A stretch of DNA of 64,000 nt, taken from NCBI GenBank assembly GCA_965216065.1, contig CBDCFB010000001.1, positions 77,802 to 141,801 on the forward strand. Direction: 5' to 3'. Under the pieces are notes generated by a model. The model was not told where the DNA came from. It made no database searches and was given only the letters and a program-made list of their open reading frames with translations. Positions within the stretch are counted from its first letter, which is position 1. Every line of letters starts with the position of its first letter. Below are positions 20,177 through 44,700 of this stretch, in pieces. A program made the translations under genes and the position numbers. The DNA is from Dehalococcoidia bacterium. GTDB lineage: Bacteria > Chloroflexota > Dehalococcoidia > Lucifugimonadales > UBA3495.

Positions 20177-20182
20177 ACGCTC

Positions 20183-20620
20183 TCATCCGTACATCAGGGT
20201 CAGAGCTTCCATCACCTTCTTTGGTCTGTTCCGATTCCGGGCGCACGCGTACCACCAGGAGCTCTCACAAGGGTGCATGTCCGCGATGGCTCGGCCCAGC
20301 GATTCTGCTTCCTGGATGCCTTCGACGTGTCCCACCGCATCCATCAGGAGCCGGATCTGCACCGCCTCCTCCTCGCTGAGGGGGTAGTATTGCTTGGCTT
20401 CGACGTCCTGGGGTTGAAGTCGCTTTCCCTGCATCTTCCACAGGACGGTGGAGGCCGGTTGGAAACACCGGTCGTAAAGGTCCCCTGCAGCGTTCTGAAG
20501 TCGGCGCCCGTTCCTCTTGGCCGTTCTGCCGGCCAGGGTTATGGATATTCGACGCATCCCCTTTGGGTCGTGGTCCAGTAGCAGCCCGTGGTCCTTGTCC
20601 GTTTCTCTGAGCAGTGTCAT
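20183..20620 (-). CDS. Hypothetical 145-aa protein
   Basis: It starts 26 nt after the DUF499 gene stop and has ordinary composition. It sits where DUF3780-like genes often accompany DUF499/DUF1156, but I cannot confirm that family by eye. Confidence 0.6.
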   Translation of the reverse strand: MTLLRETDKDHGLLLDHDPKGMRRISITLAGRTAKRNGRRLQNAAGDLYDRCFQPASTVLWKMQGKRLQPQDVEAKQYYPLSEEEAVQIRLLMDAVGHVEGIQEAESLGRAIADMHPCESSWWYACARNRNRPKKVMEALTLMYG

Positions 20621-20646
20621 CAGGTTCCTGTCCTTTATAGATGGGG

Positions 20647-25514: not shown

Positions 25515-26668
25515 CTAAACCAAAGCCAAGGTGGGATGTGCATTCGCCTGAGGTGAGGAATCGTGTTGGGAATTCGGCAGGAGTGCTTCGGCCCTTGACT
25601 GCAGTACCGTTCGGCAGCGGCACCTCACCTCGTCTCTCCGGCTGGTCAGTCCAGCCAGGAAGTTGCCGACCCTTTCCTGCACCGCCGCCCTGCTGCCCAG
25701 GCAGAGATTGCCCGTCGCCTCCTCTCTCGCCCAGCCCCAGACCGCCTCATCGGCGTTGAAGTCCGGGCTGTACCCCAGCAGGTTCACCAACCGCAGGTCA
25801 AGTCCGGGCGTCCGCAGATATTCCCGCACCGCCTCTCCACGGTGGGCCGGCGCGTTGTCCCAGATGACTTGCAGCGGCCCTGAATGTTTTCCCCTCAGTT
25901 GTTCCAGGAAGGCAACCGAGGTCCCGGAGTTGCTGTTGCCCTCCAGTTCCATCCATTCCACCTCGCCCGTCTCCAGGCACACCGCCGAATAGTAGCTGGC
26001 CTTCTCCCCATACCGCGGGCTGGTCGAATCCACCAACGCAGGTTTGCCTTTAAGCACCCACTTGCCCCGCAATTCCGCATCGGCCCGGAAGTGGGCCTCA
26101 TCCGCGAAAAATATTCTGGCTCCGGTCCGCTGGGCCACCTCTGTCAGGATGGCGTACTCCGCCACAAAGGCCTCCCGCTTGGCATCATCAGCCTTGAGCA
26201 GACGCTTCTTGGGCCGCTTGAAGGCAAATCCCAAACGGTGCAGCCAGTTCAGGCAGCTGCTGCGGCTCAACTCAATGCCGAAGCGCTCTAGGACAAACCG
26301 CCCCACCACCTTCCAATACCAGTTGGCCATTACGATGCCCGACGAAACGGGAGGCTGTTGCACCGCCTCTTTCAATTCCTCCTGCTGCGCCTCGTCAAGG
26401 GCGGGGGGGAACCACCGGTCTGCTCGAATATCAGGGCCGCAGGTCCTCCCTCGCCGAAGGCCGACGCCCAACGGCCAATAGTGTGGGGATCCCTTTCCAG
26501 CCCCTCTGCCGTGGCCGCCGCCGTCAAGCCCTGGGCCAGCAGCAGCATGGCGTACCACCTCTCCCGCTCCCTGGGCGTCGGCGCCAGAATCATCCGCCGA
26601 CGCAAGGCCTTAGCATCCATCTGCCACTGTTCGAGAAACCGGTCTATCTCCCTCACACCCATCACCAA
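25515..26668 (-). CDS. IS630-family DDE transposase (orfA 26372-26668 and orfB 25515-~26410 joined by a -1 shift on a C7 run)
   Basis: orfA has the HTH part ('...AEGLERDPHTIGRWASAFGEGGPAALIFEQTGGSPP'). The orfB frame continues 'ALDEAQQEELKEAV...' and carries 'IFFADEAHF...VIWDNAPAHRG...LLGYSPDFNADE'. A G7/C7 run lies at 26403-26409. Confidence 0.8.
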
Positions 26669-28503: not shown

Positions 28504-29963
28504 CTAGTACTACAACGACGGGTTGTTTGGTAGGATAGTTGTCAAGATGATAGTGGGTGGTTTGGGTGATGGATGGGGCGAGTTTCGAGCGGGTTTACGA
28601 CAACTTTCAGGACTTTCACGCCTTCTTCGCGGCCTCCTTCGGCCGCAAGCAGTGGCGGGAGCACAGCCGGAACTATCTTCAGGGGCTGCTGGTGCAGGCT
28701 GGGGAGCGGCGCAACGCCGAGAACCTGTCGGAATCGGTGGGCATCTCGGCCCGGGCGATGCAGCGTTTTCTGACCGAGGCCCGGTGGGACGATGCCGCGG
28801 TCATCGGTCGGCTGCAGGAATACCTGGCCCCCAGGCTGGCTCACCCCGAGGCGGTGTGGGTGTTGGACGGCAGCGACTTTCCCAAGCAGGGACGGAAGTC
28901 GGTGGGGGTAGCCCGGCAGTACTGCGGCAGGCTGGGGAAGGTGGCCAACTGCCAGGCGGGGATGTTCCTGGCCTACGTCAGCCCGCTGGGACAGGCATTG
29001 GTGGACAAGGGGCTGTATCTGCCCGAGAGTTGGATCTCCGACCAGGACCGGTGTGCGGCGGCGGGTGTGCCCGAGGAGCGGCTGAGCTACCGGTCGAAGA
29101 CGGAGTTGGCCTTGGAGCTGCTGGAGCGGGCCCTGGGGTTGGGCCACCTCAAGGCCGGATGGGTTGCCGGGGACGACGCCTTCGGGATGTCGCCGTCCTT
29201 TCGGGAGTCCCTGGCGGGCCTGGGGATGCGCTACGTGCTGGACGTTCCGGGCAGCACTCCGGTCTGGCCCCTGGAGTTGGCTTGGACCAGTCCGGGGTCT
29301 CAGGGGTCCGGGCGCCCCCGCAAGCCCAGGCTCAGGGACGGGCAGCGTCGTACCATGGAGCAGCGCAGTGGCGAGTTGCCGGATAAGGCTTGGCGGGAGA
29401 TAACGGTGGCCCAGGGAAGCCAGGGACCGCGGAGCTATATGTTCAGCGCCCAGCGGGTGCGGGTAACCCGGAAGGGCAAGCCGGGCCAGGAGGCATGGGC
29501 CGTCTACCGCCGAAACCTGGACGGCAGCGAGCCTCGCTACTACCTGTCCAACGCTGCCGAGGATACTCCCCTGGAGACCTTGGCCTATGTGGGCGGTTCC
29601 AGGTGGCCCATTGAAACGGAGTTCGAGACGGAAAAGGGCGACGTGGGCCTGGACGAATACGAGACCCGTAGCTGGTCCGGCTGGCATCACCACATAGCCA
29701 TGTGCCTGCTGGGTGGAGCGTTCCTGCTGGGCCTGCAGCAGGACTGGGGGGAAAAAGATGCCCCGGATCACCCGTCCCCAGGTGTACCGGGTGGTGCGGG
29801 AAATGCTGCCCCGGGAACGGTTCGGACCGGAGGAGTTGCTGCTGTGGCTGGAGGATACGCAGCTACGCAACGAGCGGGCGCGCCGCTCCCACCAGAGACG
29901 CCGCTCCGCCCACCGTGAAGGCAGGATGGAGCCACCACCTTAAACGCGTCGTTGTAGTACTAG
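28504..29963 (+). mobile_element. IS701-family insertion sequence (coordinates include both CTAG copies)
   Basis: Perfect 17-bp termini CTAGTACTACAACGACG at 28504-28520 and inverted at 29947-29963. Removing the element plus one CTAG restores the resolvase frame. Confidence 0.85.
28557..29918 (+). CDS. IS701-family DDE transposase
   Basis: 'WVLDGSDFPKQGRKSVGVARQYCGRLGKVANCQAGMFLAYVS', '...GWVAGDDAFG...' and '...RWPIETEFETEKGDVGLDEYETRSWSGWHHHIAM' are IS701/IS4-like DDE signatures. Confidence 0.85.
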   Translation: MVWVMDGASFERVYDNFQDFHAFFAASFGRKQWREHSRNYLQGLLVQAGERRNAENLSESVGISARAMQRFLTEARWDDAAVIGRLQEYLAPRLAHPEAVWVLDGSDFPKQGRKSVGVARQYCGRLGKVANCQAGMFLAYVSPLGQALVDKGLYLPESWISDQDRCAAAGVPEERLSYRSKTELALELLERALGLGHLKAGWVAGDDAFGMSPSFRESLAGLGMRYVLDVPGSTPVWPLELAWTSPGSQGSGRPRKPRLRDGQRRTMEQRSGELPDKAWREITVAQGSQGPRSYMFSAQRVRVTRKGKPGQEAWAVYRRNLDGSEPRYYLSNAAEDTPLETLAYVGGSRWPIETEFETEKGDVGLDEYETRSWSGWHHHIAMCLLGGAFLLGLQQDWGEKDAPDHPSPGVPGGAGNAAPGTVRTGGVAAVAGGYAATQRAGAPLPPETPLRPP

Positions 29964-30245
29964 AGAGCCGGTCGATATGGGTGACCACCAGGGTGTCTCC
30001 CTCGACCACCAGGTCCAGAAGTTCCAGGAGGCCGGCCCGGTCGTTCTTGGCCCCGCTGAACATCCTCGGCTCGAATATTGCCCATGGCGCAGCCGGCGCG
30101 GACCAGACGCTCCACCTGCAGGTCCAGATTCTTGTCCTCTGGCTCTCTGACCGAGACCCTGGCATAGCCGTACAGCGTCATCTCCCGACATCCCTGGCTG
30201 GAATACCTGAAGTATGGGTTTCTGCCAGGGGTTGTGTAACCGGGT

Positions 30246-30320
30246 TTTCCAGCCACCCCTTCAGCTACGGGGAGTGGGGATTTACAGCCATGGCTGTAAA
30301 CAGGGCTGTTTCCAGCCACC
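30246..30320. promoter_or_regulatory. Possible res/operator site: 20-bp perfect palindrome flanked by 12-bp direct repeats
   Basis: TTTACAGCCATGGCTGTAAA at 30281-30300. TTTCCAGCCACC at 30246-30257 and 30309-30320. The site lies 65-140 bp upstream of the resolvase start. Confidence 0.35.
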
Positions 30321-30514
30321 TCGTGACCAAGGAGCGGGCATTTCGGAACGAATGGCCTTGTCGGTTTCGTTTGCTTTTAGGGTTTGAGGACGCGAGCGGA
30401 ATTAGAGGAAAGGGCTGTAGTCCCTACAAGCAAACGAAACCCCTGGGGAGATTCGGGTCCCGGTAGGAGTGCTTGCCCCGCCCTCCATGCCTGCCTGCTT
30501 CTACCTGTTGCCCC

Positions 30515-33500
30515 CTACTGACCCGGCCCGCTGACGGTGCGCTCCAGGCGGTTGGACAGCTTCTTGTCACCGTCGGCGCAGATGGCCCCCTGCGCGTTGC
30601 AGTCCGTGGTGGCGGGCAGCACGATGGTGACGTCCCCGTTGGAGTCCGGGTTGAAGCTGATCTCCCAGCGGATGTTGCTGCCGCTGACCAGCCGCCGGGC
30701 CCCGTCCATCGTGCCTCCCTCCACCGTGAACGCATGGTCCCGCAGCGTCTTGTAGCTGAAGTTTGTCTCGAGCTCCTCGCTGAAGGAGATCCTGAATTTG
30801 AAGTTGTCGCTGCCGTTGTGGGACGTCGGGACGCTCTCGAAACTTGCCGTCAGCGGAGGCCCCTTGACGGTGAATTTCAGCGGGATGGACAGCATCGTCC
30901 CGTCAGCAGTGCAGATGGCCCCCTGCGCGTCGCAGTCCTCGGTGGCGGGCAGCTCGACGGTAACGTCCGCGTTGGAGTCCGGGCTGACGCTGATCTCCCA
31001 CCGGATGTTGGGGGTGTCACTGTCCCCGTCCAGCCGCCGGGCCCCGACCACAGTGCCGCCCGTCACCGTGAACGCATGGTCCCGCAGCGTCTTGTAGCTG
31101 AAGTCTTCCTTGGGGTCCTCGCTGAACCGCAGTTCGAATTTGAATGCGTCCTGCCCGTTGTGCGACTCCGGCTTGTCGTGGATGGCGGCCGTCAGAGGAG
31201 AGGGCGAGGGCGCGGCAGCCACTGCTACGGTAACGTCGCTCGTACGGGTCTCCTGGTTCCCCCAGTCGTCGGTGAAGCTCACCCGCACCTTGATGGTCTT
31301 GTCTTCGTCATCGGCGCCAACAGTGTAGGTAGAACCGGTCGCGTCCTGGATATCCGTGTCTTCGGTCCCATCGTTTGCTATCCACTGGTAGGTGAAGGTC
31401 GCGTTGGTCAGCCCGTCGCTGTCTGATATGTTCGATGTTGATGCGGTCAGCGTCTGTCCAACCTGCACCGTACCGCTGATCGCGGGCGCTCCGGTCGCGA
31501 CGCTGTTGGGTATGGCAGCCACTGCTGCAGTCGCCTCGCTGGTCAGCGACTCGTCGTTGCCCGCGTCGTCAGTGAAGGTGATCCGCACCTTGATGGCCTT
31601 GCCTTCGTCTGCGGCCGCCAGGGTGTAGGTCGAGCCGGTCGCGTCAGTGATATCCGTGTCGTCGGCCAGCCACCGGTATGTGAAGGAGGCGTTGATCAGG
31701 CCGTCGGAGTCGGATATGTCCGTGGTATCCGCCGTGAGCTCCTCACCCACCTGCGCCGTGCCTGTGATGGTGGGCTCGCCGGTGGCGAGGGTGTTGGAGG
31801 CCGTCACTGCTGCAGTCGCCTCGCTGGTCAGCGACTCGTCGTTGCCCGCGTCGTCAGTGAAGATGATCCGCACCTTGATGGCCTTGCCCACGTCGGCGGA
31901 AACCAGGGTATAGGTAGAGGCCGTCTCCCCGGATATGTCGGTGTCGGTGTTCCCATCGCCGCGAATCCACTGGTAGCTGTAGGAGACACTGGTCAGCCCG
32001 TCCTCATCGGCAATGCCCGAGATGTCGGCCGTCAGCGTCTCCTGCACCTGGGCCGTCCCGCCGATGGTGGGCAGGCCCGTGGCCGGACGGTTGACCGCCG
32101 CAGCCACCGCTCCGGTCGCCTCGCTGGTCAGCGTCTCGGCATTGTTCCTGTCGTCGGTGAAGGACACCCGCACCTGGATGGTCTGCCCCTGCTGGCTGGT
32201 GGTGAGGGTGTGACTGGAGTCGGTGGCCCCGTCGATGTCCGACCCTCCGGCTATCCACTGGTAGCTGTAGGGAACGTTGGTCAGCCCGTCCTCGTCGGCG
32301 ATGCCCGACGTGTCCGCCGTCAGCGTCTGGTCCACCTGTACCGTCCCGCTGATGGTGGGCAAGCCCGTGGGAGCACGGTTGTCCGCCGCAGCCACCGCCG
32401 CGGTCGCCGCGCTGGTCAGCGTCTCGACGTTGTTGGCGTCGTCGGTGAAGGACACCTTGACCTTGATGGTCTTGCCCTGGTCGGCAGGCACAAGGGCGTA
32501 GGTGGAGCTTTTCTCCCCCTCTATGTCGGTGTCGTTGCTCCCGTCGCTGCGAATCCACTGATAGCTGTACGACACGTTGTCCAGCCCATCCCCGTCGGCG
32601 ATGCCGCTCGTATCCGCCGTCAGTGTCTCCCCCACCTGGGCCGTTCCGCTGATGGTGGGCGCGCCGGTGGCCAGACTGTTGGGACGGGCTGCCACCGCAG
32701 CCGTCGCCGCGCTGGTCAGAGTTTCCTCGTTATCTGCATTGTCGGTGAAGCTCACTCGCACCTTGATGGTCTTGCCCTGGTCGGCAGCAACGAGGGTGTA
32801 GGTCGAACCTGTTGCGTCGGTAATGGCCGAGTCGTCCGCCAGCCACTGATAACTGAAGGTGGCATTGTCCAACCCATCCTGGTCCGCGATGCCCGAGGTG
32901 GAAGCCATCAGCGTCTCGCCCACCTGGACCCTCCCGCTGATGATGGGCAGGCCCGTGGGCGCAGTGTTGGGCTTGGCAGCCACCGTTGCCGTCGCCGCGC
33001 TGGTCAGAGTCTCCTCGTTATCTGCATTGTCGGTGAAGCTCATCCGCACCTTGATGGTCTTCCCAACGTCGTCGGCATCCAGGGTGTAGGTCGAAGAGGT
33101 GGCGTCCTGGATGTCCGTCCCACCGGCAATCCACTGGTAGCTGAACACGGCGTCGTCCAGCCCGTCGGCGTCGGCAATGCCAGACGTGTCCGCCGTCAGG
33201 GTCTCGCCCACCTGCACCGTACCGTTGATGGTCGGCTGGCCTGTTGCCGGAGTCCCCATCACGGTCAGGCTGAGTTCCACCTCGTCCCCGACCGACCAAT
33301 CGACCGTCCCCTTATCCCACTGGTAGGTGTGCACGAACCCGGTCTTCGTGGTTGAGGCGTCCTCGGAGGAGAATGGGACTCCACCCACGTTCAGGGTGAA
33401 GTTGGTGCGAAGCCTCCGGTCCAGTCCGAAGGACAGCAGCCCGTCGTCGCCCTCGACAACCATCTTGACGGTGTAGTCATCGCCGCCCAGCGTGAATTCG

Positions 33501-36500
33501 GTCTGTGAGAGAGCGCCCGTGCTATGGAGCAGGTTGTAGCCTGAGTGAGTTTCTCTTGTGCCCGCCGTCAGGGTGGCGGACCAGGCCAGAAGGGTCACGG
33601 CCTCAGTCAGAGCGCTGGTCAGCGTCTCCTCGTGGCTCGCGTCGTCGGTGAAGGACACCCTTACCTTGATGGTCCTGCCGACGTCGTCGTACACCAGGCT
33701 GTAGGTGGAGCTGGTTGCGTCCTGGATGTCGGTGTCGGCGTTCCCGTCGTTCCTGATCCACTGGTAGGCGAAGGTCGCGTCGTCCAAGCCGTCTTCGTCG
33801 GCTATGCCCGACGTGTCCGCCGTGAGCGTCTCTTCCACCTGCGCCGTGCCGCTGATGGCGGGCGCTCCGGTGGCCGGGCTGTTGGCTGCTGCCGCCACAG
33901 TTGCGGTCGCCGCGCTGGTGAGCGTCTCTCCATTACTGGCGTCGTCGGTGAAGCTCACCCGCACCTTGATGGTCTTGCCAACGTCGTCGTCAGACAGCGT
34001 GTAGGTGGAGCCGGTTGCGTCCTGAATGTCCGCGTCGGCGCTCCCGTCGTTCCGTACCCACTGGTAGCTGTAGCTGGCGTTGTCCAGCCCGTCCGCATCT
34101 GCGATGCCCGTCGTGTCCGCCGTCAGCGTCTCCCCCACCTGCACCGTGCCGCTGATGGTGGGCAAGCCCGTGGGCGCAGTGTTGGGCTTGGCAGCCACCG
34201 CTCCGGTCGCCTCGCTGGTCAGCGTCTCTGCGTTGTTGGCGTCGTCGGTGAAGGACACCTTGACCTTGATGGTCTTGCCCACGTCGGCGGAAACCAGGGT
34301 ATAGGTGGAGTCCGTCTCCCCGGCTATGTCGGTATCGGTGTTCCCGTCGCTCCGAATCCACTGGTAGCTGAAGGAAACGTTGGTCAGCCCGTCGGCATCG
34401 GCTATTCCCGTCGTGTCCGCCGTCAGGGTCTGGCCCACCTGGGCCGTCCCGCTGATGGTGGGCAGGCCCGTGGGCGCAGTGTTGGGCTTGGCAGCCACCA
34501 TTGCCGTCGCCGCGCTGGTCAGTGTTTCCAGGTTACTCGCGTCGTCGGTGAAGGACACCTTGACCTTGATGGTCTTGCCCACGTCGCTGCCGGACGGCGT
34601 GTAGGTGGAGTCCCTCTCCCCGGCTATGTCGGTATCGGTGGTCCTGTCGCTCCGAATCCACTGGTAGCTGAAGGAGACGTTGGTCAGCCCGTCTTCGTCG
34701 GCGATGCCCGAGGTGTCCGCCGTGAGGGTCTGGCCCACCTGTACCGTCCCGCTGATGGTGGGCAGGCCCGTGGCAGTACGGTTGGGCGCCTCAGCCACCG
34801 CAGCGGTCGCCGCGCTGGTCCGCGTCTCCGCGTTGTTGGCGTCGTCGGTGAAGGACACCTTGACCTTGATGGCCTTGCCCACGTCGGCGGAAACCAGGGT
34901 ATAGGTGGAGGCCGTCTCCCCGGCTATGTCGGTGTCGGTGTTCCCGTCGCTGCGAATCCACTGGTAGCTGTAGGAGACACTGGTCAGCCCGTCCTCATCG
35001 GCAATGCCCGAGATGTCGGCCGTCAGCGTCTCGCCCACCTGGGCCGTCCCACTGATGGTGGGCAGGCCCGTGGCCGGACGGTTGTCTGCCGCAGCCACCG
35101 CTCCGGTCGCCTCGCTGGTCAGCGTCTCTGCGTTGTTCCGGTCGTCAGTGAAGGACACCCGCACTTGGATGGTCTGCCCCTGCTGGGTGGTGGTGAGGGT
35201 GTGACTGGAGCCGGTGGCCCCGTCTATGTCCGACCCTCCGGATATCCACTGGTAGCTGTAGGAAACGTTGGTCAGCCCGTCCTCATCGGCGATGCCCGAC
35301 GTGTCCGCCGTGAGGGTCTGGTCCACCTGGGCCGTCCCGCTGATGATGGGCAGGCCCGTGGCCGGATGGTTGTCCGCCGCAGCCACCGCAGCGGTCGCCG
35401 CACTGGTCAGCGCCTCCTGGTTTTTCGCGTTTTTGGCGTCCTTGGAGAAAGAGACCCTGACCTTCAGGGTCTTACCCACGTCGCTGCCGGACGGCGTGTA
35501 GGTGGGGTCCGTCTCTCCATCTATGTCGGTGTCGGTTTCACCCTCGTTCCGAATCCACTGGTAGCTGTACGACACTTTGGCCTGCCCGTCGTCGGCGGCG
35601 ATATCCGACGTGTCCGCCCTCAGCGTCCGGCCCACCTGCGCCGTTCCGGTGATGACGGGAAGGCGATCGGTCAAATTCGTCACCGTCACCGTTACTTCCA
35701 GTTCGGCGGTGTTGCCTTCGCCATCCCCGGCTTCCACCGTCACCTCGTAAACATTGTTGCTCCCTGAATCGGTCGGGCTCTCATAGTCCGGCGGGTCGAT
35801 GAAGGACAGCACACCTGTTTCGCTGATTTCAAAAGCGCCACGGTCAGTTCCCGACAGGCCCCACGCCACATCGTTTCCTTCCGGATCCGTAGCGCGGTAG
35901 GTATACAGGTCGGACGTCCCATTCTCCTTGTATGTGAAGGTGGCAGTGCTGCCGCCTCTGAACTCCGGCCGCTCGTTCACCGCCTCTACCCTTACCGTCA
36001 CCTCCAGCGTCCCGTAATACCGCCCGTCGGAGGCCCTCACCGTCACCAGGTACTCGTTGTCCCGGTTCGAGTCTGCTGGCCGCTCAAAGTCCGGAACATT
36101 CCTGAAACTCAATTCCCCGTCCCCATTGATGGTGAAGTCCCCACCGTCGGTCCCCGTGGCGCTCCATCTGGTTATTTCGGCGTCCGGGTCCTCTGGATCT
36201 GTGGCAGAGTAGTCAAACAGCACTCCTTCGCTATTTTCCCTTACGGTGATGCCGGTATTGGCAGGAGTTTCCTCAATCTCCGGCCCCTCGTTCAGATCCG
36301 TCACCGCCACCATCACTTCCAACCCGGCCGTGTTGGACTGGTCATCTCTGGCCAGCACGGTCACCAGGTATTCGTTGTCCCCGTCGAAATCATCGGGGTT
36401 TTCAAAGTCCGGGGGGGTCTTGAAAGTAAGTACGCCGCCATCCTCGCTGATTTCAAAAGCGCCACGGTCAGTTCCGCCAACCTCCCAGGTGAGATCGTCC

Positions 36501-39500
36501 CCCTCCGGGTCCGTGGCCCGATAGGTGTACAGCGCGGAAGTGCCGTTCTCCCGGTGGGTGAATGAAGTCCGGCTGCCACTCCTGAACTCCGGCCCCTCGT
36601 TTACCGCCTCCACGGTCACGGTGACGTCCAAAGTCCCGTAGTACCGGCCGTCGGAGGCCCGGACGGTCACCTCATACTCGTTATCCCGGTTGGAATCGGC
36701 CGGCCGCTCAAAGTCAGGCGGGTTGCGGAAGGTGAGTTCGCCACCCTCGTTGATGGTAAAGTCCCCACCATCCCTGCCGGCGACGCTCCAGCGGGTTACG
36801 TCGGCCGTGGTATCCTCCGGGTCCTCGCCGGTGTAAGTTGCCACTATGCCCTCGAAGTTCTCCGAAACCGTGCGGGCCGTCGACCCCGTTATCTCCGGCC
36901 CCTCGTTGACGTCGGTGACCATGATGGTGACGTCCAAGGTGCCCCGATATGTCCCGTCGGAGGCGACCACCGTGATTTCGTACTCATTATCGGGGCCAGA
37001 ATCCGCCGGCTGCTCATAGTCCGGCTCCTCCTTGAACGTCAATACTCCTTCATCGACGTCAAAGTCATCGCGGTCGTCTCCCTCCAGAGACCAGGTGATC
37101 ATCGCCCCCCGGTCCATGTCCCTGGCCTGGTAGGTATAGAGGCGGGTGTCCGTGGTGGTGTTCTCTCTGAAGCTCAGGGTCTGGCTTCCAGTAACCACCG
37201 GCGCATGCTCGTTTTCGTCGATCACCGCAATCTTCACGTCCAGCGACCCGTATCTATTGCCCCGGTCGTAGGCGCGGATGGTGACCAGGTACTCGTTGTC
37301 CCGGTTAGAGTCCGCCGGGCTGTCGTAGTCCGGCGTGTCCCGGAAGGTGAGTTGGGCAGTATTCCGGCCCGTCTGTTGGCTCGTATCGGTGATGGTGAAG
37401 TCCCCGGCGTCCGACCCCGCCAGGCTCCAGCGTGAAACGCCGGAGGCCGGCTCCTCCGGGTCCCTCGCGGTGAAGGTCGCCACCACCCGGTCCACATTTT
37501 CGTCGTAGGTGAACTCCGTCTGTCCCGAAGGAGCCGTTATTTCGGGCCCTTCAGGCACCTCCGTTACGCTGACGGCGACATCCAGGGTGCCCTCCCGTCC
37601 CTGGTCATCCGTCGCAACCACCGTCACCAGGTACTGGTTGTCCCTGTCACTATCTGCCGGCAGTTCATAGTCCGGCACTTCTTTGAAGGTCAACACTCCG
37701 GTATCGCTGATGACAAAGCCGTTTCCGTCATTGTTGCCGTCCTGTCCCCTGACCGACCACACGATCGTCGTGTCACGGTCTGCGTCGGTGGCCCGGTAGG
37801 TGTACAGGCGGGTTGCGACCGCAGTGTTCTCCCTGAAACTCAGGCTCTGACTCCCCGTTACCACCGGGTCCGCCTCGTTCTCGCCCCGAACTGTTACCGT
37901 CACGTCCAGGGACCCGTACCTGTTGGTCACGTCGTAGGCCCGGACGCTCACCAAGTATTCATTGTCCCGGTTCGAGTCCACCGGACGGTCATAGTCCGGC
38001 GCATACCTGAAGGTAAGTTCACCGTTTTCGTTGATTGAGAAGTCCCCGCCGTCACTGCCGGACAAGGACCAGCGGCTGATGTCTGAGCCCTCCGGGTCCC
38101 TGGCGGAGTAGGTTGCCAGGGTTTGCAGCGATGGGTCCTGGGTTGGGTCGGTGTATTCCTGGACCGTTATGGTTTCCCGTCCCGAAACCTCCGGCCCCTC
38201 ATTCACGTCGGTTACGGTTACGGTTACCTCAAAGGCACCGGTGCTGAAATTGTCGTCCCTTGCCTGCACCGTAACCTGGTAATCATTGTCCCTGTCGGCA
38301 TCTCCCTCGATGTCAAAATCGGGCGGATTCCTGAAGGTGAGGACACCCCTGTCGCTGATATCAAAGAGATGTCCGTCCGTTCCGCCGGGCGCTATCCAGG
38401 TGAAGGCATCCCCCTCCGGGTCCGTGGCCCGGTAGGTATGGATGGTCCCGGTACCGTTCTCCTGGAAGGTGCGGGCGTCGCTGCCGGTGATCACCGGCGG
38501 CTCGTTGGCGGCGGTAACGGTTACGGTCACGTCGTATGAACCGTACTTGCCTCGATTGTCGTAGGCGCGGATGGTCACCAGGTATTCGTTATCCCGGTTG
38601 GAGTCGGCTGGCCGATCGACATCCGGCGGGTACCTGAAGCGAAGGCCGGCCGTGTTCCGGCCGGTTTGCTCCCTCGTATCGGTGATGGTGAAATCGCCGC
38701 CGTCGGAGCCGTAGAGACGCCAGCTTGATATGGAGTCCCCCTCCGGGTCGGTGGCGCTGTAGGTGGCATTGGCCAAACTCTGATGGAATTCCTGGATGGT
38801 ATAGGAGGGCGTGCCAGTGATCTCCGGTCCCTCGTTCAGTTCGGTGACGGTGATGGTGACCATTAGCTCGCCGGTCAGTCCCCGGCTGTCGGTGGCCACC
38901 ACCTCCAGTTCGTACACGTTGTCCTGGCCCGAATCCCTGGGGTTCTCATAATCCGGCGCTTCCCTGAAGCTGAGGGCTCCCTGCTCGTTCATTTCGAAGA
39001 GATGCCCATCGGCGCCGGAGGTTGACCAGGTGATGGTGTCGCCGAGGTCCGCGTCGGTGGCCCGGTAGGTGTAGATGGCCGAGGTCGTGTTTTCACTGAC
39101 CGTTCGGTTGTCGCTGCCCGTTACCACCGGCGCCTCCTCGTTCACGTCGGTAACGGTCACCGTCACGTCTAGGGAGCCATACCGGTTGCCCGCATCGTGG
39201 GCTCGAACAGTCACCAGGTATTCGTTGTCCCGGTTGGAATCGGCCGGTTTGTCGTAGTCGGGCACGTCGCGGAAGGCCAGCACCCCGGTTGCACTGATCT
39301 CAAAGTCGCCGCCGTCGCTGCCGGAGAGACTCCAGCGGGTTACGTCGTCCCCCTCCGGGTCGGTCGCAGAGTAGGTGGCCCCGCTCAGCTCCTGGCCTTC
39401 AACGACGGTGTAAGCCCGTCTGCCCGAGACCTCCGGCCCCTCGTTTACGTCGGTAACGGTAACGGCCACTTTCAATTCGCCCTCAAGTCCCCGGTCATCT

Positions 39501-41662
39501 TCGGCCACCACGGTGATGTCATACACGTTGTCCCGGTTAAAATCCGCCCTGGCCTCGAAGTCCAGAGAGTCGGCGAAGGACAGCGTGCCCAGGTTATCGA
39601 TGGAGAAGAATGACCCGTCCACGCCCGCCACGGACCAACTAATCGCAGCCTGCTCCGGGTCCGTGGCCCGGTAGGTGTATATCGACCCCGTCCTGTTCTC
39701 ACTGTAGGTGAATTCGGTCCGGCTGCCCGTGTTGATGACGGGAGGCTCATTGAAGGGCGTCACCGTGACCGTCACGTCCAGGGAGCCGTACCGGTTGCCC
39801 GCATCGTAGGCACGGATGGTCACCAGGTATTCGTTGTCCCGGTTGGAATCGGCCGGGCGGTCGTAGTCCGGCGGGTTGCGGAAGGTCAGTACCCCAGTTG
39901 CACTGATCTCAAAGTCGCCGCCGTCGCTGCCCGAGAGACTCCAGCGGGTTACGTCGTCTCCCTCCGGGTCGGTCGCGGAGTAGGTTGCCAGTACCTGGTT
40001 TTGCGGATCCAGGGTTGGGTCGGTGGCTTCCTGGACGGTAATATCAGTATTGGCATTAGTCCGAGCAATCTCCGGCCCCTCGTTCACCTGGGTAATGGTG
40101 ATGGCGGCGTCCACCGTGTCCCTAAGGTTGCCGGAGTCTGAGGCGACCACCGTGATTTCGTACTCGTTGTCACCGTTTGAGTCCGCCGGAATCTCATAGT
40201 CCGGCAGCAGGCGGAAGGTGAGTATGCCGTCATAAATGGCGAAGTCGTCCCGGTCGCTTCCCTCCACCGACCAACTGATTACATCGTCCCGGTCCTGGTC
40301 CGTGGCGCGGTAGGTGTAGAGGACCGAGGTGGCGTTCTCCCGCTGGGTGAACTCGGTCCTGCTCTTGGTGGTGATGGTGGGCGCCTCGTTGACGTTGGTT
40401 ACCGCCACCATTTCCGTCTCTGCAAACGTCCCGTAGTACCTGCCGTCTGACGCCCGTACCGTCACCTCGTATATGTTGTCCCGGTTCGAGTCCGCCGGCC
40501 GCTCGTAGTCCGGCGTGTTCCTGAACTTTAATTCGCCATTCTCGTTGATGGTAAAGTCCCCGCCGTCCGTCCCCGACGTGCTCCAGAGGGTAATCTGGGC
40601 GCCGGTGTCCTCCGGGTCAGTGGCCGCGTACCTAGCCAGCATCTGCATCTGGTCCTGGTTTTCCGGCACTCTGGCGGGAGCATTGCCGAGCCGCCTTATC
40701 TCCGGTCCCTCATTGACGTCGGTTACGGTTACGGTAACTGGCAGGTTGGACGTGTTGCGCTGTTCGTCCCTCGCCTGAACCGTTACCTGGTACTCATTTC
40801 TATTGGTTCCCAACGGATTCTCAAAGTCGGGGGAACTGCTAAAGGTCAGCACTCCTGTTTCGCTGATTGAAAAGTCACTGGCGTCTGGCCCCGCCACGTC
40901 CCACTCGAAGTCGCCACCCTCCGGGTCCGTGGCCCTGAACGTGTGGATAGTGGACGTACCATTCTCTCCATATGAGAACTCTGTCCTGCTGGTGGTGGTG
41001 ATGGTCGGTGCCTCGTTCATGTCCCGCACCATCACCGTGACTTGGTGGTATCCGTAGTACCGGCCGTCGTAAGCCCGCACCGAGAGGGTGTATATGTTGT
41101 CCCGGTTCGAGTCCGCCGGCCGCTCGTAGTCCGGTGTGTTCCGGAACTTTAATTCGCCATTCTCGTTGATGGTAAAGTCGCCGCCGTCCGTCCCCGAGGT
41201 GCTCCACCGGTTTATGGGGGTGCCGGGACTCTCCGGGTCGCTGCCCGTGTAACTGGCCAGCACCTGCTCCGTGCTCCGGTTCTCCGTGGATGAGAGAGTC
41301 TCGCTGCCCGACACTGTCGGCCCCTCGTTCACGTCGGTAACGTTGACCATGACAGCCACGGATCCGGTATGCGTGCCATCACTGGCCTGAACCGTCACGT
41401 TATAGATGTTGTCGCCGCCCAAGTCCCCAGGAAACTCGAAGTCCGGCGGACTGTTCTCACTGAACGAGAACTCCCCCCGCTGATCGATGGTGAAGAATCT
41501 ACCGTCTGCACCTCCCACCGACCAGGCAATGCCGCTTCCCTCCGGGTCCGTGGCCCGGTAGGTGTACAGGCGGGAGGTCCGGTTCTCCGGTTGCCTCAAC
41601 CCGGTGGCCGACGAGCTCGTGGTGGTAATGGTGGGCGCCTCGTTCACCGGCGTTACCGTCAC
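30515..41662 (-). CDS. Giant surface protein, 3' portion: ~19-20 cadherin-like repeats, 14 Ig-like ~100-aa repeats, 2 C-terminal modules
   Basis: Repeated 'VT.VNE.P.I......(F/Y)..EN........Y.A.D.(E/D)....W...G.D...F.I...G.L.F...PD(Y/F)E.P.D.N.DN.Y.V.V.A.D'. This is followed by 'ATGLPTISGTAQVG.TLTADTSGIADEDGL.N.S(Y/F)SYQWI...TYTL...D.GKTIKV.VSFTDD'. The ORF has no signal peptide or ATG; it begins at a GTG inside a repeat boundary. Confidence 0.8.
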   Translation of the reverse strand: MTVTPVNEAPTITTTSSSATGLRQPENRTSRLYTYRATDPEGSGIAWSVGGADGRFFTIDQRGEFSFSENSPPDFEFPGDLGGDNIYNVTVQASDGTHTGSVAVMVNVTDVNEGPTVSGSETLSSTENRSTEQVLASYTGSDPESPGTPINRWSTSGTDGGDFTINENGELKFRNTPDYERPADSNRDNIYTLSVRAYDGRYYGYHQVTVMVRDMNEAPTITTTSRTEFSYGENGTSTIHTFRATDPEGGDFEWDVAGPDASDFSISETGVLTFSSSPDFENPLGTNRNEYQVTVQARDEQRNTSNLPVTVTVTDVNEGPEIRRLGNAPARVPENQDQMQMLARYAATDPEDTGAQITLWSTSGTDGGDFTINENGELKFRNTPDYERPADSNRDNIYEVTVRASDGRYYGTFAETEMVAVTNVNEAPTITTKSRTEFTQRENATSVLYTYRATDQDRDDVISWSVEGSDRDDFAIYDGILTFRLLPDYEIPADSNGDNEYEITVVASDSGNLRDTVDAAITITQVNEGPEIARTNANTDITVQEATDPTLDPQNQVLATYSATDPEGDDVTRWSLSGSDGGDFEISATGVLTFRNPPDYDRPADSNRDNEYLVTIRAYDAGNRYGSLDVTVTVTPFNEPPVINTGSRTEFTYSENRTGSIYTYRATDPEQAAISWSVAGVDGSFFSIDNLGTLSFADSLDFEARADFNRDNVYDITVVAEDDRGLEGELKVAVTVTDVNEGPEVSGRRAYTVVEGQELSGATYSATDPEGDDVTRWSLSGSDGGDFEISATGVLAFRDVPDYDKPADSNRDNEYLVTVRAHDAGNRYGSLDVTVTVTDVNEEAPVVTGSDNRTVSENTTSAIYTYRATDADLGDTITWSTSGADGHLFEMNEQGALSFREAPDYENPRDSGQDNVYELEVVATDSRGLTGELMVTITVTELNEGPEITGTPSYTIQEFHQSLANATYSATDPEGDSISSWRLYGSDGGDFTITDTREQTGRNTAGLRFRYPPDVDRPADSNRDNEYLVTIRAYDNRGKYGSYDVTVTVTAANEPPVITGSDARTFQENGTGTIHTYRATDPEGDAFTWIAPGGTDGHLFDISDRGVLTFRNPPDFDIEGDADRDNDYQVTVQARDDNFSTGAFEVTVTVTDVNEGPEVSGRETITVQEYTDPTQDPSLQTLATYSARDPEGSDISRWSLSGSDGGDFSINENGELTFRYAPDYDRPVDSNRDNEYLVSVRAYDVTNRYGSLDVTVTVRGENEADPVVTGSQSLSFRENTAVATRLYTYRATDADRDTTIVWSVRGQDGNNDGNGFVISDTGVLTFKEVPDYELPADSDRDNQYLVTVVATDDQGREGTLDVAVSVTEVPEGPEITAPSGQTEFTYDENVDRVVATFTARDPEEPASGVSRWSLAGSDAGDFTITDTSQQTGRNTAQLTFRDTPDYDSPADSNRDNEYLVTIRAYDRGNRYGSLDVKIAVIDENEHAPVVTGSQTLSFRENTTTDTRLYTYQARDMDRGAMITWSLEGDDRDDFDVDEGVLTFKEEPDYEQPADSGPDNEYEITVVASDGTYRGTLDVTIMVTDVNEGPEITGSTARTVSENFEGIVATYTGEDPEDTTADVTRWSVAGRDGGDFTINEGGELTFRNPPDFERPADSNRDNEYEVTVRASDGRYYGTLDVTVTVEAVNEGPEFRSGSRTSFTHRENGTSALYTYRATDPEGDDLTWEVGGTDRGAFEISEDGGVLTFKTPPDFENPDDFDGDNEYLVTVLARDDQSNTAGLEVMVAVTDLNEGPEIEETPANTGITVRENSEGVLFDYSATDPEDPDAEITRWSATGTDGGDFTINGDGELSFRNVPDFERPADSNRDNEYLVTVRASDGRYYGTLEVTVRVEAVNERPEFRGGSTATFTYKENGTSDLYTYRATDPEGNDVAWGLSGTDRGAFEISETGVLSFIDPPDYESPTDSGSNNVYEVTVEAGDGEGNTAELEVTVTVTNLTDRLPVITGTAQVGRTLRADTSDIAADDGQAKVSYSYQWIRNEGETDTDIDGETDPTYTPSGSDVGKTLKVRVSFSKDAKNAKNQEALTSAATAAVAAADNHPATGLPIISGTAQVDQTLTADTSGIADEDGLTNVSYSYQWISGGSDIDGATGSSHTLTTTQQGQTIQVRVSFTDDRNNAETLTSEATGAVAAADNRPATGLPTISGTAQVGETLTADISGIADEDGLTSVSYSYQWIRSDGNTDTDIAGETASTYTLVSADVGKAIKVKVSFTDDANNAETRTSAATAAVAEAPNRTATGLPTISGTVQVGQTLTADTSGIADEDGLTNVSFSYQWIRSDRTTDTDIAGERDSTYTPSGSDVGKTIKVKVSFTDDASNLETLTSAATAMVAAKPNTAPTGLPTISGTAQVGQTLTADTTGIADADGLTNVSFSYQWIRSDGNTDTDIAGETDSTYTLVSADVGKTIKVKVSFTDDANNAETLTSEATGAVAAKPNTAPTGLPTISGTVQVGETLTADTTGIADADGLDNASYSYQWVRNDGSADADIQDATGSTYTLSDDDVGKTIKVRVSFTDDASNGETLTSAATATVAAAANSPATGAPAISGTAQVEETLTADTSGIADEDGLDDATFAYQWIRNDGNADTDIQDATSSTYSLVYDDVGRTIKVRVSFTDDASHEETLTSALTEAVTLLAWSATLTAGTRETHSGYNLLHSTGALSQTEFTLGGDDYTVKMVVEGDDGLLSFGLDRRLRTNFTLNVGGVPFSSEDASTTKTGFVHTYQWDKGTVDWSVGDEVELSLTVMGTPATGQPTINGTVQVGETLTADTSGIADADGLDDAVFSYQWIAGGTDIQDATSSTYTLDADDVGKTIKVRMSFTDNADNEETLTSAATATVAAKPNTAPTGLPIISGRVQVGETLMASTSGIADQDGLDNATFSYQWLADDSAITDATGSTYTLVAADQGKTIKVRVSFTDNADNEETLTSAATAAVAARPNSLATGAPTISGTAQVGETLTADTSGIADGDGLDNVSYSYQWIRSDGSNDTDIEGEKSSTYALVPADQGKTIKVKVSFTDDANNVETLTSAATAAVAAADNRAPTGLPTISGTVQVDQTLTADTSGIADEDGLTNVPYSYQWIAGGSDIDGATDSSHTLTTSQQGQTIQVRVSFTDDRNNAETLTSEATGAVAAAVNRPATGLPTIGGTAQVQETLTADISGIADEDGLTSVSYSYQWIRGDGNTDTDISGETASTYTLVSADVGKAIKVRIIFTDDAGNDESLTSEATAAVTASNTLATGEPTITGTAQVGEELTADTTDISDSDGLINASFTYRWLADDTDITDATGSTYTLAAADEGKAIKVRITFTDDAGNDESLTSEATAAVAAIPNSVATGAPAISGTVQVGQTLTASTSNISDSDGLTNATFTYQWIANDGTEDTDIQDATGSTYTVGADDEDKTIKVRVSFTDDWGNQETRTSDVTVAVAAAPSPSPLTAAIHDKPESHNGQDAFKFELRFSEDPKEDFSYKTLRDHAFTVTGGTVVGARRLDGDSDTPNIRWEISVSPDSNADVTVELPATEDCDAQGAICTADGTMLSIPLKFTVKGPPLTASFESVPTSHNGSDNFKFRISFSEELETNFSYKTLRDHAFTVEGGTMDGARRLVSGSNIRWEISFNPDSNGDVTIVLPATTDCNAQGAICADGDKKLSNRLERTVSGPGQ
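31199..35662 (-). repeat. Array of 14 Ig-like coding repeats (~288-300 nt), interrupted by a non-repeat module at ~33255-33590
   Basis: The periodicity is visible in the protein and in the regularly spaced antisense ORFs of the track. Units 2-3 and 11-12 are near-identical pairs. Confidence 0.8.
41047..41659 (-). repeat. 613-bp near-identical direct repeat, copy A
   Basis: Matches 42013-42625 at an offset of 966 bp. I saw only a handful of mismatches. Confidence 0.85.
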
Positions 41663-41731
41663 CGTAACGTCACGAGAGCCGTAGTACCGACGAGCTCGTG
41701 GTGGTGATGGTGGGCGCCTCGTTCACCGGCG

Positions 41732-44700
41732 TTACCCCGCCGAGACCTGTACCGCAAGGCTATACACGTTGTCCCGGTTGGAGTCGGCAGGTCTCTCATA
41801 GTCGGGTGTGGCGCGGAAAGTAAGCTCTCCCTGTTCGCTTATGCTGAAGTCCCCGCCGTCGGTTCCCGTCAGCCGCCAGGTCGGCACCACGGCCAAGTCT
41901 CCCTGGCCAGCGGCCGAATAGGTCGCCAGAAGACCCTCGAAGTTTTCCGGCCGGTCAAGAGCGGAAGGACCTGAAATCTCGTCCAGATCATCCACCGTCA
42001 CCGCGACTTCAAGGTATCCGTAGTACCGGCCGTCGTAAGCCCGCACCGAGAGGGTGTATATGTTGTCCCGGTTCGAGTCCGCCGGCCGCTCGTAGTCCGG
42101 TGTGTTCCGGAACTTTAATTCGCCATTCTCGTTGATGGTAAAGTCGCCGCCGTCCGTCCCCGAGGTGCTCCACCGGTTTATGGGGGTGCCGGGACTCTCC
42201 GGGTCGCTGCCCGTGTAACTGGCCAGCACCTGCTCCGTGCTCCGGTTCTCCGTGGATGAGAGAGTCTCGCTGCCCGACACTGTCGGCCCCTCGTTCACGT
42301 CGGTAACGTTGACCATGACAGCCACGGATCCGGTATGCGTGCCATCACTGGCCTGAACCGTCACGTTATAGATGTTGTCGCCGCCCAAGTCCCCAGGAAA
42401 CTCGAAGTCCGGCGGACTGTTCTCACTGAACGAGAACTCCCCCCGCTGATCGATGGTGAAGAATCTACCGTCCGCACCTCCCACCGACCAGGCAATGCTG
42501 CTTCCCTCCGGGTCCGTGGCCCGGTAGGTGTACAGGCGGGAGGTCCGGTTCTCCGGTTGCCTCAACCCGGTGGCGGACGAGCTCGTCGTGGTGATGGTGG
42601 GCGCCTCGTTCACCGGCGTTACCGTAATCGTCTCTTCAAAGGTGCCGTAGTACCTCCCGTCATACGCCCGCACCGTCACCTCGTACACGTTGTCCCGGTT
42701 CGAGTCGGCAGGGCGTTCGTAGTCCGGCGAGTAGCGGAATCGCAACTCACCCTGTTCGTTCATGACGAAGTCCCCGCCGTCCCGGCCCGAGGTATCCCAT
42801 CGGGTGATCTCGGCGCTGGTGTCTTCCGGGTCAATGGCCATGTACCTGCCCAGCACCTGGGTCTGGCCGTGGTTTTCCGCCACGCTGCCCGGGGCACTGC
42901 CAACCCGGGTAATCTCCGGTCCCTCGTTCACGTCCGTAACGGTTATGGTGAAGGCCAGACTGTCGGAGTGGCCGTCTTCGTCGATGGCCACCACCGTCAG
43001 TTCGTAGTCATTCTGCCCGTCCGAATCCGAGGGGCTCTCAAAGTCCGGCGGGCTTACGAAGGACAGTTCGCCGCTGTCGCTGAGCGCAAAGGCGCTGGCG
43101 TCCGTCCCCGTGTGCGACCAGGCAATGGGGCCTCGCTGCGGGTCGGAGGCGCGGAAGTTATAGACCGTTGAGGTACCGTTCTCCCGGTAGGTGGTGGGCG
43201 GTCTCCTGGTGCTGATGGTGGGCTCCACGCTCTCAGCGTGGTTGGTGACCGTAACTGTGACATCAAAGTTGTCGGTCAATCCCTGTTCATCGGTCGCCAC
43301 CACCGCTATTTCGTACAGGTTGTCCCCGTTTGAATCTGTCGGGTTCTCAAAGTCGGGTGGACTGGTGAAGGTCAGCACACCGCGGCCGCGGCTATCGCTG
43401 GTGATGGTGAAGGCGTGGGCGTCCGTGCCGGTCACAGACCAAGTGATGATTCCCCGCTGCGGGTCGTTGGCGCTGTAGGTATAGACCGTGCGCGCGCCGT
43501 TTTCCTGGTAGGTCAAGGCAGGCCTGCTGGTGGTGGTGATGGTCGGCTCCTCGGTACCGGTGGAGTTTGCTACGTTAACCGTCACCTCCAGCCTGTCAAA
43601 ATTGAACCCGTCGTCCCGGGCCTGGACCGTGACCAGGTATTCATTGTCCCCGCTGGCATCCGCCGGATTCTCAAAGTCCGGAACATCGGCAAAGGTCAAC
43701 ACTCCAGTTACGCTGATATCGAAATCTCCCCCGTCCGTGCCCGACACTGACCAGGTAATTGTCCTGCCCTCCGGGTCCGCGGCCTGGTATGTGTACAACG
43801 CGTGAGTGCTGTTCTCCGGGTAGGTAAAGGAGGTTCTGCTCTTGCTGCGGGAAGTGAACTCCGGTGCCTCGTTCACATCCCGCACCGTCACCGCAACATT
43901 CAGCATCCCCGTGTACTGCCCGTCCGAGGCCCGCACCGCAACCAGGTATTCGTTGTTGCGGTTGGAGTCGGCGGGACTTTCGTAGTCCGGTGTATTCCTG
44001 AAAGTCAGCACCCCGGTCTCGCTGATGCTGAAGTCCCCGCCGTCGGTGCCCGACAGGCTCCAGGTGAAGGTGGTGCTGGCACCTTCCGGGTCGCTGGCCG
44101 AGTAGGACCCACTGAAGTTCTCGTCATTCTCGTCAATCGTGCGGGTGTCCAGTCCGCTCACCGTCGGCGGTTCGTTGACCGGTGTGACTGTCACGGTTAC
44201 GTCCAGCGTGGCGGTGTTAAGTCCATCGTCCTGCGCCCTCACCGTCACCAAGTACTCATTACCGTTGGCCCCGGCCGGACTCTCATAGTCGGGAGAACTC
44301 CCGAACGTCAGCGCGCCCGTCTCGCTGATCCTGAATTCATTTCCGTCTGGCCCTCCCACCGACCAGGTAATACTGCTTCCCTCCGGGTCCGTGGCCCGGT
44401 AGGTGTACAGGCGCGACGTCCGGTTTTCAGGTTGCCTCAACCCGGTCGCGGACGAGCTCGTGGTGGTGATGGTAGGCGCCTCGTCCACGGGCGTTACCGT
44501 GATGATGATGTCCAGGGAACCGTAGGCATTCCGGTTGTCGTAGGCCCGCACCATCACCAGATATTCGTTGTCCCGGTTCGAGTCCGCAGGCCGTTCATAG
44601 TCCGGTGTATTCCGGAAGGTCAGCACCCCGGTCTCGCTGATGAGGAAGTCCCCGCCGTCGGTCCCCGACAGGCTCCAGCGGGTTACGCTGTCCCCCTCCG

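Follow-up and report, generated by a model that had tools for sequence, protein, structure and literature searches.

The shared 3' end of two Dehalococcoidia surface-protein genes: probable patchwise gene conversion of an Ig-like stalk, followed by the relic of an intergenic element

What keeps the 3' ends of two otherwise different surface-protein genes alike, down to the bases that follow the stop codon? The question is raised by a 64,000-nucleotide stretch of a Dehalococcoidia bacterium (contig CBDCFB010000001.1, positions 77,802 to 141,801; hereafter the window), in which two large genes on the minus strand end in a near-identical cassette of DNA. One of them, the giant gene, finishes with the open reading frame (ORF) 30515-41662 (-). 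The other, ORF 51739-55407 (-) of 1,222 codons, is referred to here as the 1,167-aa gene after the size given in the original prediction made on this DNA; from its real start (MFLPALIL...) it encodes ~1,136 aa by our own count. The joint explanation that we consider best, with a probability of roughly 0.8, is that the cassettes have been homogenised by patchwise gene conversion, that the conserved flank behind the stop codons is the relic of an intergenic element, and that the module with which both proteins end is an immunoglobulin (Ig)-like stalk repeat.

The original prediction described a pair of near-identical C-terminal modules in each gene, and pairwise alignment and self-BLAST reproduced both their coordinates and their residue pattern. 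Over the 681 nt of the two modules (30518-31198 versus 51742-52422) the genes are 93.2% identical in DNA and 90.3% in protein, each carrying a module 1 of 114 aa followed by a module 2 of 113 aa. Module 1 of the giant gene occupies 30857-31198 (-) and, by sequence comparison, contains a DPKED patch where the paralogue and an orthologue of the giant gene from another sample (locus L001) both have ELGTG. The terminal module 2 (30518-30856 (-), 93.2% nucleotide identity to 51742-52080) ends in ...TVSGPGQ upon translation and is followed by the TAG stop at 30515-30517. In the 1,167-aa gene, modules 2 and 1 lie at 51742-52080 and 52081-52422 (-), and the TAG stop at 51739-51741. The identity is not halted by the stop codon: it continues for 51 bp as predicted, with 49 of 51 bases matching (96%) between 30464-30514 and 51688-51738, and then drops to 13 of 51 over the next 51 bases, which is the chance level.

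Upstream of the modules, the match reaches into Ig-like units of the AIR9/ZirU type. The last three units of the giant gene (31199-32086 (-)) have homologues in the three of the 1,167-aa gene (52423-53313 (-)), where units 2 and 3 share 96% identity. The unit next to the modules (31199-31420) is 94.6% identical between the genes, identity upstream of 31420 is ~80-87%, and the Ig-like units other than the last three show 60-75%. The core of the match (30464-31420 versus 51688-52644) aligns without gaps and contains 60 differences in 957 nt (93.7% identity), and the full match (30464-32086 versus 51688-53313) is 87% identical over 1,632 nt. The predicted extension into the Ig-like units was therefore present, while the predicted total of 1.3-1.5 kb was slightly low compared with the ~1.63 kb measured here, which includes the 0.96-kb high-identity core. 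Beyond this tract the sequences are unrelated, including the N-terminal regions of the two genes. Modules 1 and 2 within one gene are only ~80% identical, compared with 93% for homologous modules across the two genes, and the tandem pair is therefore older than its sharing between the genes.

The last ~1 kb of both genes and the DNA behind their stops have been kept similar by non-reciprocal recombination among members of this gene family. Synonymous divergence between the two cassettes is low (dS 0.13, dN 0.05), and the identity at silent sites together with that of the flank makes selection on the protein alone insufficient. At the codon level, fully identical blocks (e.g. 30812-30898, 100%) lie beside clusters of differences (such as DPKED versus ELGTG in module 1), and identity along the tract varies between 87% and 100%. 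The most informative comparison was with L001, which is recognised as the orthologue of the giant gene by its downstream flank: this flank is 99% identical to that of the window's giant gene, no site across the 149 nt of 30315-30463 parts the two, and the paralogue is unrelated there. Over the 957-nt cassette, however, L001 is 95.7% identical to the window paralogue but 94.8% identical to its orthologue in the window, the two window copies being 93.7% identical to each other. Among 69 informative sites, the three possible patterns occurred 32, 23 and 14 times and were clustered along the sequence (runs test, p=0.002). That L001 is nearer to the paralogue than to the orthologue, and that the incongruence is clustered, is not accounted for by a single duplication with plain divergence.

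Comparison with further loci extended this picture. The cassette of the 1,167-aa gene differs from that of strain L087 at 3 of 957 nt (99.7% identity), and at all three sites L087 bears the base of the giant gene. Cassettes 95-97% identical to those of the window are present on other contigs, where they are joined to another flank type (L080, 97% to the giant gene's cassette; L081, 95% to that of the 1,167-aa gene). Within the fetched loci, nothing homologous to the N-terminus of the 1,167-aa gene was found. The proposal of recombination or gene conversion, rather than selection at the protein level alone, is thus borne out by the dS of 0.13, the 96% identity of the non-coding flank and the clustered mosaic relative to the orthologue. 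The flank, which had been put forward as pointing to cassette exchange, is weaker evidence than assumed because it belongs to an element conserved at 65-82% identity in many species; at 96% between the window copies, compared with 65-82% to other genomes, it nevertheless favours the view that the two 3' ends descend from the same DNA and separated recently.

What, then, is the flank? The 51 nt behind the giant gene's stop (30464-30514 (-)) correspond to 'part A' of a conserved intergenic element, its first third, and hold the 5' arm (GGGGCAAGC) of a long-range helix. A recognisable post-stop sequence, 65-82% identical to the window version, follows the terminal module in many Dehalococcoidia species. 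In ~30 of 77 genome loci collected with the terminal module as query (L003-L079), a spacer of ~150 nt separates the stop from the start codon of a helix-turn-helix (HTH) gene of 81 aa (MPRQRTNYSRRTY...) with weak matches to the Pfam families HTH_31 and HTH_23. The unit of spacer and HTH gene is found at L007:4340-4739 and L010:4340-4740, at L013, L033, L054 and L060, and at ~25 other loci; it is repeated after several family members within one genome, and 39 of 46 spacer matches lie directly after a terminal module. Leucine-rich repeat (LRR) lipoprotein genes follow the HTH gene in L002 and L007.

In the spacer, a 5' arm (G.GAGGCAGGCG...) pairs with a 3' arm (...CCCTGCCCTC.C) to form a long-range helix with arms of ~15-20 nt enclosing ~45 nt; the spacer also contains the palindrome CCGGGACCCGG. 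The core of the helix was found by RNAalifold and includes compensatory variants (GGCAAGC/GCTTGCC and GGCCAGC/GCTGGCC). In a model-fitted alignment of 47 hits, double changes occurred at 13 pairs compared with 7.4±1.6 in shuffles, and the covariation score was 0.171 compared with 0.106 for shuffles and 0.035-0.073 for slid controls. Independently of any alignment, the duplex energies of the arms ranged from -19 to -39 kcal/mol with a mean of -26.5, compared with -18.0±3.8 for shuffled partners, and in divergent element types the cognate arm was the best or nearly the best duplex partner. No Rfam family matched the window at the gathering score or the full L010 element at E<=1; the post-stop element with its HTH partner is undescribed as far as the searched libraries show, and it could act as a leader, as a terminator or processing site, or as a binding site for a protein. 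It resembles repetitive extragenic palindromic (REP) sequences and bacterial interspersed mosaic elements (BIME), as well as structured elements of 3' untranslated regions (UTRs) and leaders, in being a repeated, imperfect long hairpin directly after stop codons whose arms covary. Unlike REP/BIME elements, it is much longer and is tied to one gene family and to the HTH gene that follows.

Other readings of this sequence were rejected. A coding extension or leader peptide is contradicted by the start codon, as the ATG of the element is not kept (ACG in L007 and L010, AAG in L017) and close relatives carry 1-nt indels. For an attC-like integron site, by inspection only, the GGGCAAC start lacks a GTTRRRY partner, and the helix arises from internal segments. 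A local hairpin (P1, GGACGG...CCGTCC) exists in some element types, is broken in the L007 and L054 types and is not claimed here. No terminator-like site was detected in 29900-30600 and no promoter consensus in the flank. The exact flank had no match in JGI metagenome contigs; the family was found in ENA and NCBI data.

The window itself contains only a truncated relic of the element, intact after neither gene. Downstream of the giant gene, a covariance model of the element (R1) matches 30358-30517 (-) weakly (35.7 bits, E=1.3e-6): the continuation at 30358-30463 (-), found only here, is degenerate, as is its 3' arm, and no HTH gene follows. Similarity to a fragment near 62 kb reaches to 30442, and a multi-copy insertion sequence (IS) appears, from unitig depth, to end near 30326, beyond the element. 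No HTH gene was found in the window by tblastn. The flank of the 1,167-aa gene (51688-51738 (-)) keeps only the 5' arm. Immediately beyond its nt 51, the DNA matches an internal part of the LRR gene found behind the HTH gene in L007, and the alignment covers a decayed LRR-lipoprotein gene remnant at 51371-51677 (-). This alignment implies a deletion of ~0.8 kb, measured against L007, in which the remainder of the element, the HTH gene and the LRR gene's 5' end were lost. The 51-nt limit is thus a deletion endpoint and not the boundary of a conversion tract. Folding of the flank as RNA, suggested with the original prediction, showed that the three copies fold no better than shuffles (z +2.5, -0.1), and the flank in the window is presumably a relic without function of its own. 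It does form part of the shared 3' DNA, as had been proposed, but it is not mere hitch-hiking DNA, being the first third of an element conserved after terminal modules in many Dehalococcoidia. The LRR proteins of the window, encoded at 5405-6280 (-) and in the decayed gene at 51371-51677 (-), consist of 72-nt (24-aa) repeats.

It is conceivable, but in our judgement rather doubtful, that the arrangement of terminal module, ~150-nt structured spacer and 81-aa HTH gene is a dedicated boundary device and not passive synteny, in which the HTH protein and the spacer, as a novel structured element of RNA or DNA, would jointly control surface-gene expression or promote exchange of 3' ends. If so, it would be a new system of surface variation or regulation in an uncultured symbiont lineage (some of the related metagenome-assembled genomes (MAGs) are sponge-associated), and the window would be a decayed example from which the control part has been deleted behind both genes.

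Four other explanations of the shared ends have to be set against recombination. One recent segmental duplication of the 3' end and its downstream DNA, with independent divergence since and no ongoing conversion, would fit the dS of 0.13 and the 96% flank as a single moderately recent event, and recent tandem duplications are present in the Ig-unit arrays. Yet such a duplication predicts that orthologues are closest, whereas L001 is closer to the paralogue (95.7% versus 94.8%) despite its 99% identical flank; the clustering of incongruent sites (p=0.002) and the swings of identity between 87% and 100% also speak against it, and we consider it improbable. Purifying selection on the protein domain and on a functional non-coding flank, with no exchange of DNA, is in keeping with the retention of both module and post-stop element across species. 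It is nevertheless very unlikely: the element is 65-82% identical between species but 96% between the window copies, synonymous sites are far from saturation, and homologous modules across the genes are more alike (93%) than modules 1 and 2 within a gene (~80%).

Programmed diversification of the C-terminus, by a diversity-generating retroelement or by pilin-style silent cassettes, would assign a donor role to two promoterless partial copies that we found in the window in addition to those listed in the original prediction. The larger of these, at 62044-62371 (-), is a third, dead copy: it lacks the first third of module 2, is shifted in frame by +1, reaches a TAG stop at 62131-62133 and continues into ~85 nt of flank (GGAGGGAGGGGCAAGCACTCCTGCCTGGACCCGTATCTCGCCAGG). 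The other is a 37-nt scrap of module 1 (55303-55339 (-), FSEDPKENFSY; 94.6% identical to 31094-31130) just upstream of the real start of the 1,167-aa gene. The patchy distribution of the differences would also suit such a system. However, adenine is not singled out by the substitutions (A takes part in 30 of 60, and every substitution class is seen), no reverse transcriptase was present among the subset of window ORFs scanned against Pfam, and between strains the 1,167-aa gene's cassette stays 99.7% identical. The fragments, left by deletions, out of frame and fused to 5' leaders and gene starts, look like decay and not like an ordered donor array. We regard programmed diversification as scarcely credible, and the same applies to a false second copy produced from a collapsed or chimeric repeat in the long-read metagenome assembly. 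That the region is highly repetitive, that the giant gene has an aberrant junction at 41689-41736 and that Logan unitigs are very short within the cassette would all be expected of such an artefact, but the copies differ at 60 sites and have different unique DNA around them. The cassette of the 1,167-aa gene, its 51-nt flank and the downstream DNA recur at 99.0-99.95% identity in six assemblies obtained independently from other samples, short- and long-read (L085-L090), L001 contains the end of the giant gene with 206 nt downstream at 99%, and the junction at 51688 is spanned by unitigs from two public runs, X1 and X2.

The unitigs are too fragmented for phasing of the copies. Their word depth over the coding DNA of the cassette (30510-31300 and 51770-52260) was 10-100 times that of adjacent unique DNA (51283-51709) in four public runs, and the cassette is therefore present in far more genes or genomes of those communities than the flanking DNA is. 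The segment 30327-30448 was absent at >=97% identity from the unitigs of the same four runs.

Turning to the module itself, a known-domain assignment that would weaken the cassette reading was not found in Pfam, NCBIfam or the sequences of the PDB. The best curated Pfam model for the 241-aa C-terminus reached 14 bits against a cutoff of 24, NCBIfam gave only noise-level matches, a PDB sequence-profile search returned nothing, and the sequence models of the Big, Ig and FN3 families did not match the module. A word-indexed search yielded 1,173 relatives, all in metagenome assemblies, and a profile of the single module detected 5,158 proteins at E<=1e-3 (2,116 at E<=1e-30) among 1.84 billion cluster representatives. 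The best 147 representatives contain 2-22 full copies per protein, and up to 25 stretches, in tandem or interspersed with Ig-like units. In 80 of these 147, no more than 5 residues separate the last copy from the C-terminus; in the other 67 it is not C-terminal, with more than 150 residues after it in 50. A scan of one genome per species gave 273 matches, the best 80 of which all belong to Dehalococcoidia or Chloroflexi MAGs, including one sponge-derived bin. The matched copy was terminal and ended in ...TVSGPG(Q/G) in 72 of the 77 genome loci, a set biased toward terminal copies by the choice of query. The stop after this ending is TAG in ~85% of terminal loci, with few TAA or TGA, a preference that may simply reflect a common ancestry of the final codons and the spacer.

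Structure prediction, as suggested with the original prediction, was carried out with AlphaFold2 (AF2) and gave confident models for the tandem pair (predicted local distance difference test, pLDDT, 90.9) and for one module (92.6, the terminal module of the giant gene). One module is modelled as a beta-sandwich of seven or eight strands with one inserted helix. Its best Foldseek matches are Ig-like, with a template modelling score (TM-score) of ~0.5, namely a Bacteroides conjugative-transposon lipoprotein and domains of the surface-layer (S-layer) protein SbsC; the tandem model gave only low TM-scores owing to its two-domain geometry, and the single-module search was used instead. A Cys-x6-Cys pair is invariant in the module, and both window proteins have Sec signal peptides. 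By predicted fold class, the module is an Ig-like beta-sandwich repeat, found in tandem in extracellular proteins, and it constitutes a new sequence family within that class. We suggest that it is a lineage-specific, disulphide-stabilised extracellular repeat that would form the C-terminal part of a stalk.

The likeness to known folds has clear bounds. The SbsC domains (PDB 4uic, 4uid and 4uj6) and the Bacteroides lipoprotein (4lba) are also surface Ig-like sandwiches, but with TM-scores <=0.5, sequence identities of 13-15% and E values of 1e-3 to 1e-2 the resemblance is one of fold class and not a homology from which function could be transferred. As in the Big-type repeats of giant adhesins (SiiE, LapA/RTX and Bap) and in AIR9/ZirU-type units, a beta-sandwich of ~100 aa is repeated, here 2-25 times, in very large secreted proteins that also carry cadherin, FN3 and Calx-beta domains. 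The module differs from Big-type adhesin repeats in lacking a sequence-model match, in its inserted helix, its Cys-x6-Cys pair and its preferred terminal position, and in a TM-score of only ~0.5.

The original prediction had considered a sorting or anchoring signal, and the strongest form of this idea is that the two modules are a C-terminal surface-anchoring or sorting unit, uniform because all copies must fit the same envelope ligand or export machinery, with conversion as the means and anchoring as the reason. Each of the two proteins carries a Sec signal peptide but shows no other anchor, an S-layer protein domain is among the best fold matches, and the terminal ...TVSGPG(Q/G) of 72 of 77 loci and the 80 of 147 representatives that end within 5 aa of a module are what an anchor would lead one to expect. 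The module also resembles the LPXTG/sortase, PEP-CTERM, T9SS (type IX secretion system), SLH and CWB2 domains in its C-terminal place common to otherwise unrelated secreted proteins, in the window as two tandem copies. Unlike those sorting domains, it has no motif, transmembrane helix, basic tail or model match: the C-terminus ...ICADGDKKLSNRLERTVSGPGQ contains neither a sortase- or PEP-CTERM-type motif nor a hydrophobic stretch, and no T9SS C-terminal domain, SLH or CWB2 model in Pfam or NCBIfam matched the 241-aa C-terminus above noise. T9SS belongs to Bacteroidota, and the host, a member of the Chloroflexota, lies outside that range. Copy number and position are equally atypical, with 2-25 copies, up to 22 of them full, often between Ig units, and 67 of 147 representatives without a C-terminal copy; the count over the 77 loci is in turn inflated by the terminal-module query. 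A sorting or anchoring signal was thus not borne out, and we consider an anchoring role, which for the terminal copy would be non-covalent, unlikely, though less so than the alternatives to recombination weighed above.

The combined reading of converted cassettes, relic flank and stalk repeat has several points against it. The function of the module is read from fold, position and context, and the conserved ...TVSGPG(Q/G) ending with ~85% TAG is unexplained by a stalk repeat. Both cassettes and the two fragments lie inside one 64-kb window, and a single window cannot fix the direction, the donors or the timing of conversion. Neither window cassette has the other as its closest known relative (L080 97%, L081 95%), and other paralogues elsewhere in the genome have probably contributed, as sites of one of the three patterns (pattern 3) dominate; donors outside the window are thus probably part of the history. 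A part of the mosaic could derive from recombination between strains and not within one genome. Finally, L001 is a 5x long-read contig with frameshifts, and some of its differences may be errors, yet errors would not recreate the bases of the paralogue.

The family is one of secreted or surface proteins in which different N-terminal 'business ends' are joined to a common C-terminal stalk. The head of the giant gene is a subtilase with cadherin and Calx-beta domains in a protein of ~6,400-6,900 aa, that of the 1,167-aa gene FN3 domains with a unique region, and the common stalk is made of AIR9/ZirU-type Ig-like units followed by the two ~113-aa beta-sandwich modules. Gene conversion in short patches leaves the mosaic described above, in which blocks without any difference alternate with clusters of changes. 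As a mechanism, conversion between paralogous surface-protein genes is well known and ordinary, as in the multigene families of Neisseria opa and pilE/pilS, Anaplasma msp2 and the Mycoplasma MgPa repeats. As in these families, paralogues with different remainders share a sharply bordered tract with silent and non-coding identity and a patchwork of differences, and truncated copies lie nearby. In contrast to them, nothing in the window points to programmed switching at high frequency or to an ordered silent archive, the exchanged part is a conserved structural 3' end and not an exposed variable part, and the host is an uncultured Dehalococcoidia.

The locus thus illustrates how surface genes of Dehalococcoidia can carry different functional heads on a common C-terminal stalk whose DNA is homogenised by recombination. 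Two of its components are worth curating: a large domain family with no model in the searched Pfam and NCBIfam libraries, ~5,000 clusters at 50% identity and a confident fold prediction, and a conserved structured post-stop element paired with a small HTH gene. Shared cassettes of this kind also explain the fragmentation of these loci in short-read assemblies and their splitting by gene callers.

Several further features of the family were noted at the locus, whose surroundings are rich in the debris of recombination. The giant gene is represented by two ORFs, 41732-49831 and 30515-41662 (-), parted only by the aberrant junction of ~48 nt (41689-41736) with a TAA. The junction lies inside tandem repeats of ~0.9 kb whose copy number varies between strains, and in strain L085 the giant gene is a single ORF of 6,925 aa. 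It is really one gene, and its split in the window is either a strain-specific pseudogene or an assembly error. A lipoprotein gene between the two large genes (49860-50690) was matched by 12 contigs of various samples, among them the six that reproduce the end of the 1,167-aa gene. The 96% identity of units 2 and 3 in the Ig-like array of that gene (52606-53119, period 285) represents a very recent tandem duplication or homogenisation. In one strain, a DDE_5 IS lies inside the 1,167-aa gene (L085:5826-6773, corresponding to window position ~53687).

A non-coding leader of ~530 nt, conserved upstream of family members, is present twice in the window. One copy, at 55853-56382 (-), is 79% identical to the second and is followed by a truncated gene start with a signal peptide and FN3 (55370-55732). 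The second copy, at 62446-62968 (-), is joined by a deletion to the module-2 fragment at 62371. The leader also precedes family members of ~1,100-1,200 aa in L003, L004, L005, L009, L011, L012, L014 and L017, and could represent a promoter or 5'-UTR region that has been conserved. The dead module fragment is immediately followed by a small ORF (61808-62030 (-), MPWSYSGIVREEDGTWVAVREV...), whose product looks like a HicB-type antitoxin.

Elsewhere in the window, transposase genes of the DDE_5 type (28557-29918) and of the DDE_3/IS630 type (25515-26558) are present. An Hma-type defence island occupies 12135-23583 (-) and comprises an SNF2+PLD helicase (HmaA/DrmD-like, 12135-14963), a TIR protein (ThsB/PDC-S66-like, 15486-16349), a DUF1156 adenine methylase (HmaB, 16385-19402) and a DUF499 ATPase (HmaC, 20647-23583). 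A copy of window positions 7293-9881 at 99.9% identity is found on a contig of 129,315 bp (L084; ERZ26694896 ctg115679) that is possibly circular, its name ending in '_c', and in other samples the neighbourhood of this segment lies on contigs larger than 1 Mb.

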